64,000 bases of DNA from Myxococcota bacterium (GTDB lineage: Bacteria; Myxococcota_A; UBA9160; SZUA-336), in the NCBI GenBank assembly GCA_965247115.1, contig CBDFGR010000003.1, positions 2,208,001-2,272,000 on the forward strand, written 5' to 3'. The notes under the pieces are model-generated. The model searched no databases, had not been told where the DNA came from, and worked only from the letters and a program-made list of their open reading frames with translations. A program made the translations under genes and the position numbers. This document shows, piece by piece, positions 17,178 to 20,307 of this stretch. The stretch's first letter is position 1. Each line of letters begins with the position of its first letter.

Positions 17178-18444
17178 GCAAGCGCGATCTCACAACGGCA
17201 GCGATCCTCGCTCCCGATGCCGCGGCTCCTTCGGCATGGGGTCCGACGAGGTAGTCCCCGCAGAAGAAGATGCGCCGCGAACGAGCCTGGCGCTGCTCGC
17301 TCCAGAGCCGCTGCGCAGCGCGGTACCTACCCGGGCTGAAGCACGGCACGCTTGCCGGCAGGCGCAGCAGCTTGCTCGTCTTCGTTCCGGAGCGCAGTCC
17401 GGGGTGGATGCGCTCGGCGGACTCGAGCAGGGTCTGGCTGAGCTCCGCGTCCGCGTGCTGGCCCTGGGCCACCGCGAAAGCGGGGCGAGCCACCAGAAGA
17501 AGCAGCTGGCGCCCGCCAGACTCTGTCAGCAGCTCGACGCTGCCGGAGAGGGAACCGCCCTCCGACTCCGGTATCCAGGTAACGGGAGCGGAGGCCACTT
17601 GAGTGCACGACACCGCCAGGTGTAGTCCGTCCAGATAGCGCGCCGACTCGAAGACCTCGCGCTCGGGGGGACTGAGCTCTTTCACGAGGCCCGTGACGTG
17701 CGTAGCGGGGACGGCAAGCACGACGGCGTCTGCGCCGATCTCCTCACCGGATGCAAGACGGACCCCGCTTCCCCCGGACAGCACCGAGGTCACTCTTGCT
17801 GCGGTGCGCAGCTCCAGCCCCGAGGCGAGAGCGGGCGCCAGCGCACTCAGCCCAAAGGCCAGGGAGAGCTCGACGTCCCCCCAGGCGTCGAGGAACGTGA
17901 AGAGCAGCTGGCGACTCGTCTCGCAAACGTCGTGGGCGAAGTGGAGCTCGAGCAGGGGCCCGAAGAGCCGTGCGACCGAGCGCGCTCCGAGCGTGAGGTG
18001 CCCGAAGTCCGCAACGCTCCGGTCGTCGAGACGCGTCGCGCGGTCGGGGGCCTGGGGATCTACGGCGGCGCCGAGCCACTCCACCAGGCAGCGCAGGCGG
18101 CGAGCGCGGAGCACGCGCAGGGGTCCCGGAGCGAGGGAGTCGACACTGCGCATGCTCGCCGACACGATGGACCCGCGCTGTAGGCGCCGGACCTGCTCGA
18201 GCGGCGTGCGCCGCACGGACTTCCTCATCCCGAGCTCTGCGATGAGGCCTCCGATCACGGGCGCGCTGCGGGGCAGGGCGTGGAGTGCGGGCTCGAAGCG
18301 GACACCGTCAAGTGTCTGCGCGCGTAGCCGGCCGCCGATCTGTGAGCTGGCCTCGACCAGAAGGCAGTCGACCTGCGCGTCCTGCAGCCGCTGGGCGGCG
18401 ACCAGGCCAGCGAGTCCGGCCCCAACGACAACGACCCGGCTCAC
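17167..18444 (-). CDS. FAD-dependent oxidoreductase (protoporphyrinogen oxidase / amine oxidase family)
   Basis: VVVVGAGLAGL..A, EASSQIGGR, LDDRSVADF, FCGDYL..P..EGAAASG. Confidence 0.75.
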   Translation of the reverse strand: MSRVVVVGAGLAGLVAAQRLQDAQVDCLLVEASSQIGGRLRAQTLDGVRFEPALHALPRSAPVIGGLIAELGMRKSVRRTPLEQVRRLQRGSIVSASMRSVDSLAPGPLRVLRARRLRCLVEWLGAAVDPQAPDRATRLDDRSVADFGHLTLGARSVARLFGPLLELHFAHDVCETSRQLLFTFLDAWGDVELSLAFGLSALAPALASGLELRTAARVTSVLSGGSGVRLASGEEIGADAVVLAVPATHVTGLVKELSPPEREVFESARYLDGLHLAVSCTQVASAPVTWIPESEGGSLSGSVELLTESGGRQLLLLVARPAFAVAQGQHADAELSQTLLESAERIHPGLRSGTKTSKLLRLPASVPCFSPGRYRAAQRLWSEQRQARSRRIFFCGDYLVGPHAEGAAASGARIAAVVRSRLLSE

Positions 18445-18977
18445 GCGGGCTTTGCGCTCACCTCGAGACCAAGCTCCGTGGCGACCTCGTCGAGGGACTT
18501 CTGAAGCCGCGAGCCGTCGAGGGTCTCGGGAACCTCGGCGGCGACCGTCATGCCGTAGAGCGCGGCTCCCGACGGAGAGGGCAAGGTGGTGGAGCGGAGA
18601 TCGGCGATGTTCACCTTGAGATCGGCGAGCACGCGACAGATCCGCGCCACGATCCCGGCGCGGTCCTCACCCTGGGCCTGGATCTCGAAGAGCCGATAGC
18701 CAGGCGCGGGTACGGGGGGGCGGGGCTCGCCCTCCAGCGGCCGCAGCAGGATCGTGAGCCGATTCTCCCACTCGAGGCGCCTGGCGCCGGTCGCCAGCCG
18801 CTCGCCGAGGTCGTCGGAGGTTCCGGAGCAGAGCAGGATCGAGGCGAACTCGTTGCCCAGCAGGGCCATGCGCGAGTCCTCCAGGTTGGCCTCGCAGTCG
18901 AAGACCAGCTGAGCCAGATCCGCGACGACCCCTGGCCGATCCCGGCCCACGGCCGAGAGAATGAACCACTTTCGCAC
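18441..18977 (-). CDS. tandem ACT-domain protein (GcvR-like)
   Basis: GRDRPGVVA...NLEDSRM and GEDRAGIVA...NIADL. GGAGG SD before GTG 18977; TACAAT -10 upstream. Confidence 0.85.
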   Translation of the reverse strand: MRKWFILSAVGRDRPGVVADLAQLVFDCEANLEDSRMALLGNEFASILLCSGTSDDLGERLATGARRLEWENRLTILLRPLEGEPRPPVPAPGYRLFEIQAQGEDRAGIVARICRVLADLKVNIADLRSTTLPSPSGAALYGMTVAAEVPETLDGSRLQKSLDEVATELGLEVSAKPA

Positions 18978-19020
18978 TGTGCCTCCTCCGCCGAGCCTCA
19001 TTGTAAGGCACGCGGGAGCG

Positions 19021-19140
19021 CCCCATTGCGTCAGCGCGACCGCAAATTGGGGCCACCTTGCGCAGCCCCTTCCACGCCCCTGCGCACGCGTGGACCGTTC
19101 TGCCCCTCAGCGGATATCGCTTTTATTCACCACGACTTAG
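19021..19140 (+). promoter_or_regulatory. putative enhancer-binding-protein sites and IHF-like bend site upstream of sigma54 promoter
   Basis: Imperfect palindrome TTGCGTC-AGCGC-GACCGCAA (19026-19045), paired TGCGCA motifs (19059, 19081), AT-rich TTTTATTCACCACGACTTAG (19121-19140). Confidence 0.5.
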
Positions 19141-19174
19141 AGATCGCATGGAACCTGCGCGCGAGCCGCTTCCA

Positions 19175-19190
19175 TGGCACGTCAGTTGCT
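19175..19190 (+). promoter_or_regulatory. sigma54 (-24/-12) promoter
   Basis: TGGCACGTCAGTTGCT matches the consensus TGGCACG-N4-TTGCW exactly; predicted +1 near 19201. Confidence 0.8.
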
Positions 19191-19200
19191 CAGAGCCAGG

Positions 19201-19300
19201 GGCGTAGCTGCTGAGTGGTGGTCGCTCGGCGGCATGGGAGTGCCCGGGTCGGATACCCCTCCCCTCGCATGTGCGAGGATCCGGCCCGGGCTTTCCTGTC
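19201..19300 (+). ncRNA. candidate sigma54-dependent small RNA
   Basis: Stem 1: 19207-19217/19223-19233 (11 bp with G-U pairs). Stem 2: 19242-19254/19279-19291 (13 bp) with C-rich bulge ACCCCUCC and inner hairpin CCUCGCA/UGCGAGG, followed by UUUCCUGUCUCU. No credible downstream CDS on the + strand. Confidence 0.65.
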
Positions 19301-19449
19301 TCTAGGGCTCGGCTTTGGCCGTCCTGACCCCGAAGACCAAGCGGGCGAGCCGTGGGATTCATGACGCGAGCACACTTCGCTGGAAGGGCGGCGGCCGGTG
19401 GAAGAGCAAGAGCGCCAAAGCGCCTCGAGGCTCCGGCTGGACGGGCCCG

Positions 19450-20307
19450 CTAGCCTAGATGCTTGGCGAGAAACTCGGCCAGCGGATCGAACGAGGCGCG
19501 TGACGCCCGCACGGCGTCGTCGATGTAAAGGACCTCGATGTCGCCGCCCGCTTCCCGGTAGCGATGGGCGAAACGCTCGGGCTCCTTGACGCCGAGCTCG
19601 GACTCCGGATCGAGATAGTCGTGGACGGCGTCGGGCTGGCCCTGGATCCAGACCGCCGGTGGCGTCTCGACCGCCTCGCCCGACTCCAGCGCGACGACCG
19701 GATTGCCGTCGGTCATGTTCTCGTCGGTGACCCAGTAGAGGTCGTGGGACTCCGGGATGTCGCCGACCCATTCGGCCGGCGGTGACTTGGCCCGTTCCCT
19801 GAGCGCGTGGCGGTAGCGCGACAGCGGGTTGATCACCGGCCACAGCATGCCGACGCATTGGACGCGTGCGTCGACGTCGGGCTCGCTGGCCTCGAGAGCG
19901 ATGGAAGCGTACCGCGAATCCGCTGGCCGCATCGCCGCCAGCATGGCGAGGTGTCCGCCGCTCGACTGGCCGACCAGGGCGAACCGGTCCCGATCGAGCC
20001 CGAGATCGCCGGCATGTGCCTTGAGCCAGCGGACCGCGTAGTTGATGTCGATCAGCGAGGTCGGGTAGCCGTCGCCGGCATGGCGGAAGTCGAGCGCGGC
20101 AGCGGCGAAGCCTGCCTCGGCCAGCATCTCGCCGCGTGGATCGCATGCGGTGAGATCGTTCTTGCACCACGCGCCGCCGTGCAGATCGACGACCGTCGGA
20201 AGCGGACCCGCGCCGGTCGGCCGATGGAGCCGGAGCTTGAGTCCCGCATCGCCGTGACGCAGATATTCGATGTCCCCGGTCGTGAAGGTTTCGGTCTCGG
20301 TCAGCAT
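19450..20307 (-). CDS. alpha/beta hydrolase (esterase/lipase, HSL-like)
   Basis: LHGGAW oxyanion motif, GQSSGGH nucleophile elbow; GGAGGAAG SD. Confidence 0.85.
   Translation of the reverse strand: MLTETETFTTGDIEYLRHGDAGLKLRLHRPTGAGPLPTVVDLHGGAWCKNDLTACDPRGEMLAEAGFAAAALDFRHAGDGYPTSLIDINYAVRWLKAHAGDLGLDRDRFALVGQSSGGHLAMLAAMRPADSRYASIALEASEPDVDARVQCVGMLWPVINPLSRYRHALRERAKSPPAEWVGDIPESHDLYWVTDENMTDGNPVVALESGEAVETPPAVWIQGQPDAVHDYLDPESELGVKEPERFAHRYREAGGDIEVLYIDDAVRASRASFDPLAEFLAKHLG

Follow-up and report, generated by a model that had tools for sequence, protein, structure and literature searches.

The region between a GcvR-like ACT-domain gene and an alpha/beta hydrolase gene raises the question of what is transcribed from a σ54 promoter that faces a convergent gene, which activator opens it, and on what its product acts. 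The initial annotation had placed a perfect TGGCACG-N4-TTGCT box at 19175-19190, had described the next gene as convergent, and had proposed a trans-acting small RNA (sRNA) as the product. The box and the convergent hydrolase gene (19450-20307, minus strand) were both recovered (Table 1), and the box is the sole strict σ54 consensus within the 64-kb window, i.e., the whole stretch of DNA that was analysed (64,000 nucleotides). The analyses described below point to a conserved sRNA gene, whose RNA would be made and would pair through a seed with G-rich ribosome-binding sites (RBSs), a joint reading to which we give a probability of about two in three (0.68).

Table 1. Features of the sRNA locus and its flanks (window coordinates; a dot marks features without strand).
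Feature	Coordinates	Strand	Remarks
GcvR-like ACT-domain gene	18441..18977	-	Divergent from the sRNA unit; Pfam ACT_6; GTG start predicted
Imperfect palindrome	19026..19045	.	Overlap with the conserved enhancer limited to its left half; only the CGCAA end of the palindrome strongly conserved
Predicted activator-binding enhancer	19036..19056	+	Centred on CAAATTG (19043-19049); f1 variant of the class palindrome GTGACRCAAWTTGYGTCAC
Two TGCGCA half-sites (19059, 19081)	19058..19086	+	Possible secondary activator sites
AT-rich IHF-like bend site	19115..19140	.	Best match to the IHF consensus 19115-19127, 2 mismatches
σ54 -24/-12 promoter	19175..19190	+	TGGCACG-N4-TTGCT
Predicted sRNA, ~100 nt	19201..19303	+	+1 inferred from promoter spacing
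5′ hairpin, 11 bp, three G-U pairs	19207..19233	+	Family-f1-specific; sequence variable, stem kept
Conserved core (13-bp outer stem, 6-bp inner hairpin)	19242..19291	+	Covariation
Outer stem arms	19242-19254/19279-19291
Inner hairpin	19263-19278
Unpaired bulge ACCCCUCC, 8 nt	19255..19262	+	Predicted seed
Pyrimidine (U/C) tail	19292-19303	+	Likely terminator with the core hairpin
Alpha/beta hydrolase gene	19450..20307	-	Convergent; outside the sRNA unit

The presence of this unit in relatives was assessed by two approaches. BLAST detected the core in 108 of 225 genomes of the class, which we take to be UBA9160, and a covariance model built from 54 sequences found the sRNA, mostly as a single copy, in 135 of 151 class genomes and in 98 of the 104 high-quality ones. 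No true match was found in 123 other Myxococcota genomes, 10 of which gave weak model hits (at most 33.9 bits), the three inspected proving to be plain terminators without the bulge; viral contigs likewise yielded 0 matches. The σ54 box was present in 75 of 78 genome loci and in 100 of 108 metagenome loci, and the enhancer, the IHF-like tract, the -24/-12 box and the bulged hairpin co-occur across the class. The conservation of promoter and stems in relatives, on which the initial proposal had been made to depend, thus extends class-wide (135/151 genomes) and, as judged from sequence, the sRNA gene with its own σ54 promoter is real and a property of the class. Three genomes of family f6 (G191, G192 and G196; 87-91% complete) gave no sRNA match even at relaxed settings; these are reduced genomes of 2.2-2.8 Mb, in each of which 2-4 σ54 activators were found.

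The structure of the predicted RNA was as first described, with the 11-bp hairpin and its three G-U pairs at 19207-19233, followed by the 13-bp stem, the unpaired bulge, the inner hairpin and the pyrimidine tail, all in their places. Function of the plus strand as RNA, which had been argued from the G-U pairs, is consistent with a strand-biased fold, the folding z-score being -4.54 on the plus strand (a value reached by 0 of 200 shuffles) and -1.03 on the minus strand, and the bulge of the source sequence was unpaired with a probability of at least 0.99. The covariation check that had been suggested gave a positive outcome in relatives: 97.2% of alignment cells were paired, two-sided changes occurred in 14 of the 21 stem pairs and none of 500 shuffles equalled this, counts that are inflated by the kinship of the sequences, while slid controls of the alignment reached at most 48% paired. 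The alignment rows were picked with the bulge motif, so the invariance of the bulge within them is partly by construction. Because of this selection and of the kinship inflation, two further checks were carried out. In 17 covariance-model hits that had played no part in training, CCCUCC was conserved throughout and the longer CCCCUCC in 15. In metagenomes, 114 distinct loci were selected by the 5′ half of the core alone; the 3′ arm was present in 106 of 113 and the bulge was open in 105 of 106 folds, and 7 of the 8 promoterless loci also had no 3′ arm, these seven looking like chance matches.

Outside the core the transcript is far more variable. The 5′ stem folds in 22 of 22 f1 sequences and is variable or absent in other families, the regular 5′ hairpin with its GGGAG linker being limited to f1, and the leader between promoter and core ranges from 9 to 96 nt across families. 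In the predicted folds, the GGGAG linker of f1 did not sequester the bulge. Two variants of the core were observed. In G217, G218 and G025 the core hairpin is tandemly duplicated behind a single promoter, and in G035 and G148 the core is kept with the bulge changed to AUCCCUCC. Neither a σ54 box nor an enhancer consensus was found within 420 bp in the latter two genomes, in which the RNA unit is possibly rewired. G028 is another genome with a variant bulge.

The non-coding status of the locus was assessed by comparison with known families and by the fate of its ORF. An Rfam scan of the region returned only two chance matches (E 3.9 and 5.7), and none of 10 loci scanned reached a gathering score; a match to a known Rfam family had been named at the outset as the outcome that would take away its novelty. 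Identity with SRP RNA was rejected, the SRP RNA being found elsewhere in the genome above the cut-off, as was identity with 6S RNA, for which a 6S-like sequence was found elsewhere below the Rfam cut-off (G000:C2:209614-209784(-), 36.7 bits, E 1.4e-5). The 23-codon ORF at 19234-19305, named at the outset as the competing product, is not conserved among 23 f1 loci: an ATG is present in 10 of them, with lengths from 21 to more than 100 codons and shifted frames.

The flanking genes were also variable. The neighbours among loci encode ACT, S-methyltransferase, HAD, GH20, Mur ligase and other proteins in varying orientation. The ACT-domain gene, whose match to NCBIfam PRK11589 is below cut-off, adjoins 19 of the 23 f1 loci and none of the 54 others, being a neighbour in family f1 only, and the hydrolase gene is a neighbour in 0 of 77 related loci. 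Since the neighbours vary in identity and orientation, the sRNA is not regarded as the leader of an adjacent gene. The alternative that it is a cis element, i.e., the leader, attenuator or terminator of a neighbour, or that the ORF is the product, could draw on the GH20 gene that many non-f1 loci have downstream in the same orientation and on the hairpin with its U/C tail, but the downstream genes vary and are often convergent, the fold is strand-biased and the ORF is non-conserved, which makes it very improbable. Instead, the variable leader, the non-conserved ORF and the differing neighbours suggest that the working part is the 3′ bulged hairpin, which would therefore act in trans.

The locus thus combines its own promoter and terminator, an intergenic position, the absence of a conserved ORF and an unpaired seed of 6-8 nt, traits of an sRNA. 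In one RNA run (share 0.09; low-depth contigs only), a 197-nt contig covered 18786-18982, in the neighbouring gene, and no contig lay over 19010-19364. A literature search returned nothing describing this sRNA. An RNA of 80-130 nt is almost certainly made from the locus, as inferred. Two further observations concern nearby or similar promoter sequences. A TACAAT -10-like box at window positions 19000-19005 (minus strand), assigned to the GcvR-like gene, recurs in many f1 loci; it lies near the sRNA enhancer, so that the two may interfere. Elsewhere in the source genome, G000:C3:1183019(-) and G000:C3:2568253(-) have near-identical σ54-box regions with no predicted same-strand gene downstream, and the pair is possibly part of a repeated element.

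The upstream region contained each of the elements that had been listed in the initial annotation, with one change of emphasis. The palindrome at 19026-19045 is present, but what is conserved is an enhancer at 19036-19056 that it merely overlaps. The centre of this enhancer is placed 130 bp upstream of the -25 G, and across loci the palindrome lies ~105-145 bp upstream of the σ54 box. A profile built from 75 loci (52 non-f1 and 23 f1) revealed GTGACRCAAWTTGYGTCAC as the enhancer of the 52 non-f1 loci and an altered form centred on CGCAAWTGG in the 23 f1 loci. The TGCGCA pair at 19059/19081 was found as given, and TTGC/CTGC recur loosely in the corresponding region of relatives. The AT-rich IHF-like tract was likewise confirmed, its segment 19121-19140 ranking within the top 0.1% among 20-nt windows. 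Between enhancer and promoter, 12 of 75 related loci had a sequence that differs from the IHF consensus at no more than one position, whereas this was so for 1.4% of shuffles and for none of 75 control segments from upstream.

The enhancer was also examined across genomes. It tops the 25 σ54 sites of the source genome with 20.9 bits versus 7.5 for the next, a site that was itself within the training set. When GTGACRCAAWTTGYGTCAC was searched for with at most 2 mismatches, 24 sites were found in 61 genomes, 23 of them just upstream of the sRNA; since the palindrome stands at the sRNA promoter in 23 of 24 cases, a single activator likely has the RNA as its main output. The consensus palindrome was absent from 18 of 18 f1 genomes searched. 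Beyond the class, the enhancer pattern occurred in 5 of 80 genomes, the four inspected having neither a σ54 box nor the RNA nearby, and a combined enhancer and promoter pattern gave 0 of 401, a search that missed known positives too and was too strict.

Which regulator recognizes this enhancer was approached through the activators of the class. The activator had been expected to be unlinked, and indeed no activator gene was found among 50 flanking ORFs of 13 sRNA loci, while the source genome encodes 14 full σ54 activators. It also harbors a M. xanthus-like pil cluster with two kinase-regulator pairs, to which the names PilSR and PilS2R2 were assigned by gene position after PMC6060248, a source that, citing Bretl 2016, ascribes to them a role in pili and vesicle chains. 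A PilR2 helix motif was matched in 103 of 151 genomes. In all 79 non-f1 genomes matched the helix reads SHR/SQR with Leu at position 6, and in all 24 f1 genomes matched it reads S[P/A/L]R with Gln or Arg. The recognition helix thus changes in the same family, f1, as the enhancer, which makes PilR2 the likely activator, this co-change being a single event on one branch. Comparison of G000 with G032/G118 showed identical or nearly identical helices for PilR and for the NtrC-like and NtrX-like regulators; the helix of one other activator also differs in the f1 comparison.

The co-occurrence of PilR2 and the sRNA was consistent in part with this assignment. A relaxed motif applied to 33 of the 48 unmatched genomes recovered PilR2 in 15 of the 26 that have the RNA and in none of the 7 that lack it. 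The RNA-positive small genomes G032 and G118 encode both PilR and PilR2, and neither was found in the RNA-negative reduced genomes G191, G192 and G196. Five genomes had the PilR2 motif without a model hit, and 11 of the 26 retested RNA-positive genomes were without the motif. Taken on helix and enhancer together, PilR2 is probably the activator of the sRNA promoter. PilR is a possible alternative, since the pilin promoters have the TGCGTCAC half-site in common with the sRNA enhancer, at a shorter spacer. In the source genome, two pilin genes (G000:C3:198332(-) and G000:C2:1678446(-)) have σ54 promoters with a GTGAC-N7-GTCAC palindrome, which is likely a PilR site; the available part of PMC6211767 gives no binding motif, and no direct PilR2 targets were found described in a literature search.

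As to the mode of action, the bulge CCCCUCC resembles the 16S 3′ end CACCUCC (anti-Shine-Dalgarno, anti-SD), and no Hfq was found in the source genome (98% complete). Among 1001 GGAGGGG sites in this genome, the longest perfect complement of the sRNA is 12 nt long and unique, lies over the Shine-Dalgarno (SD) sequence of lpxC, and pairs the bulge together with an inner-stem strand; the lpxC start is probably a TTG three codons upstream of the called start. GG[AG]GGGG was present in 23 of 49 lpxC leaders including that of the source genome, i.e., in 11 of 18 f1 and in 12 of 31 non-f1 leaders, the latter comprising 7 of 12 in the initial set and 5 of 19 in a further set fetched as an out-of-sample test, from which a twentieth leader, truncated by the end of its contig, was left out. 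The baseline was 107 of 4739 source-genome genes (2.3%; from a hexamer-based caller, with some starts wrong) and 2 of 212 control leaders. Most of the lpxC sites are G-runs that need a G-U pair, and the tract is found in 0 of 7 leaders of family f5. Moreover, the RNA-negative G191 still has the lpxC G-tract, the sRNA is kept in four genomes of genus g76 in which lpxC was not found, and equilibrium co-folding of the sRNA with the lpxC leader gave no intermolecular pairs. On this evidence lpxC is a tentative target, with the odds somewhat against it. The lpxC gene (G000:C2:178965-180150) has its own σ54 promoter with a tandem enhancer GTGAY-N6-RTCAC, kept in most class families; its spacing differs from that of the sRNA enhancer, and no such promoter was found in the 7 f5 leaders.

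RomY-like leaders provide a second candidate target, with GGAGGGG at the RBS in 12 of 18 f1 and 2 of 12 non-f1 cases. The gene for the RomY N-terminal domain (G000:C2:402967-403350) is conserved in 56 of 61 class genomes. A regulon test of the source genome against 2 Mb (40%) of the distant genome G054 revealed 0 of 9 strict pairs sharing the motif, lpxC excluded, and in a relaxed test of 599 gene pairs over the same 40% of G054 the complement occurred in both genomes for lpxC only. Over this span the tests indicate no broad conserved regulon, and lpxC stands out.

This lack of a broad conserved set of complementary leaders would also suit a protein-binding RNA, in which the bulged hairpin of the same σ54 unit titrates or scaffolds a protein that binds C-rich RNA; CrcZ and RsmZ are RNAs that act by protein titration. 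The stem base GCCCG/CGGGC is conserved in sequence itself, beyond structure alone, a one-sided bulge is a constrained way of presenting a seed, and the tandem core duplications would suit a titrator. Known protein sponges carry many motif copies, whereas a single motif per RNA is found here in most genomes, and the motif is an anti-SD look-alike whose complement is enriched in lpxC and romY-like leaders, so that protein binding is unlikely. Pairing of the bulge with another G-rich small RNA instead of an mRNA, as a decoy or sponge, would fit the few conserved mRNA complements and the several 10-11-nt complements in source-genome intergenic DNA, but with 1001 GGAGGGG sites in the genome chance alone would produce such intergenic matches, and no conserved partner RNA was identified, leaving this reading improbable. 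Base pairing with G-rich RBSs is the likely mode of action, as predicted from the bulge and its complements.

This mode of action can be compared with that of characterized sRNAs. The likeness to Pxr that had been drawn at the outset holds for the logic (σ54 and a C-rich motif) and fails for the family, since there was no match to RF01812 (thresholds of E<=10 for the region and E<=1 for the whole genome) and the architecture is another. Both have a σ54 promoter with an enhancer (judged here from sequence alone), a length of ~100 nt, a host devoid of Hfq and a C-run in the functional part. A Pxr primer in PMC5568312 includes a six-C run within nt 13-33, and Pxr has been reported to contact mRNA SD regions in Hfq-less M. 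xanthus (10.1101/2025.09.11.675593). Pxr (PMC5684412, PMC5568312 and PMC11928866) has three stem-loops with SL1 as the functional loop and is found in Cystobacterineae only. Unlike Pxr, with its conserved SL1/SL2 and its position directly downstream of the activator gene pxrR/nla19, the sRNA described here has one bulged 3′ hairpin with an optional 5′ hairpin and no adjoining activator.

The rhizobial NfeR1/alpha-r14 is described as Hfq-independent and as repressing by RBS occlusion via anti-SD motifs (PMC10746234). Its likeness lies in a C-rich anti-SD motif that is ultraconserved and unpaired amid variable stems; however, it has three hairpin loops with CCUCCUCCC, as opposed to the single CCCCUCC bulge without Rfam match here, and it is LsrB-activated and NtrC-repressed with no σ54 signature. 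A third case, likened by description only, is Dv_sRNA2 of Desulfovibrio vulgaris, an sRNA of unknown function mapped as a target of the response regulator DVU0679 (PMC3333781). It is also an sRNA targeted by a two-component regulator in a deltaproteobacterium, but it lies downstream of its regulator gene. In the same source, lpxC is given as the single target of another Desulfovibrio regulator. By analogy, the sRNA likely works like Pxr and NfeR1 and belongs to neither family.

In f1 relatives the sRNA gene was also found associated with integrase genes. Non-coding RNA genes used as attB by tyrosine-integrase elements include those for tRNA, tmRNA and some enterobacterial sRNA loci. In G002, a member of the same genus, a break at the 5′ arm of the core seems to divide the gene into a promoter half, with a Phage_integrase gene after it, and a 3′ half located on another contig behind foreign DNA (G002 contigs C30 and C21). 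In the predicted fold, the foreign arm in G002 pairs with the C-rich bulge, which would thereby be hidden. Promoterless 3′ halves were present in G009, G015 and G021, and in G014 a 74%-identical integrase fragment adjoins an intact sRNA gene. Tyrosine-integrase elements therefore appear to have used the sRNA gene repeatedly for integration in f1 (5 of 27 RNA-positive f1 genomes), the split or duplicated copies coming from metagenome-assembled genomes, in which misassembly is possible. The adjacent integrase gene and the occurrence of 3′ halves in duplicate or as orphans are features shared with known attB RNA genes; the difference is that the promoter-side copy in G002 is not restored and the gene appears split.

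These elements can be arranged into a proposed mechanism. Phosphorylated PilR2 would bind the enhancer and the σ54 promoter would be opened, yielding an RNA of 80-130 nt whose working part, the 3′ bulged hairpin, would also be the transcript end. Without Hfq, the rigid stem would display the short seed to GGAGGGG or G-run RBSs, maybe with an extension of pairing into the inner stem, and repression of lpxC would tie the supply of lipid A to signalling from the pilus system. The complete chain, in which the sRNA is the dedicated PilS2/PilR2 output class-wide and throttles lipid A synthesis via the lpxC leader, is speculative and, taken as a whole, rather doubtful.

At the level of the family, this is an sRNA without an Rfam 15 entry that is kept by ~94% of the high-quality genomes of a widespread uncultured class, with the unusual architecture of a seed placed in a bulge on one side of the terminal hairpin. 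Since each genome has essentially a single enhancer of this type, one two-component system seems to signal mainly via the sRNA; should this be PilS2/PilR2, its regulator would gain a predicted binding site and a predicted RNA output. Should lpxC be a target, sRNA control would act directly on the committed step of lipid A synthesis, a link for which no literature match was found. In M. xanthus, an effect of PilR2 on outer-membrane vesicle chains has been reported (PMC6060248). If the complete chain is true, it would constitute the first molecular route from PilR2 to outer-membrane composition, via an Hfq-free RNA whose seed is in the bulge of its own terminator.
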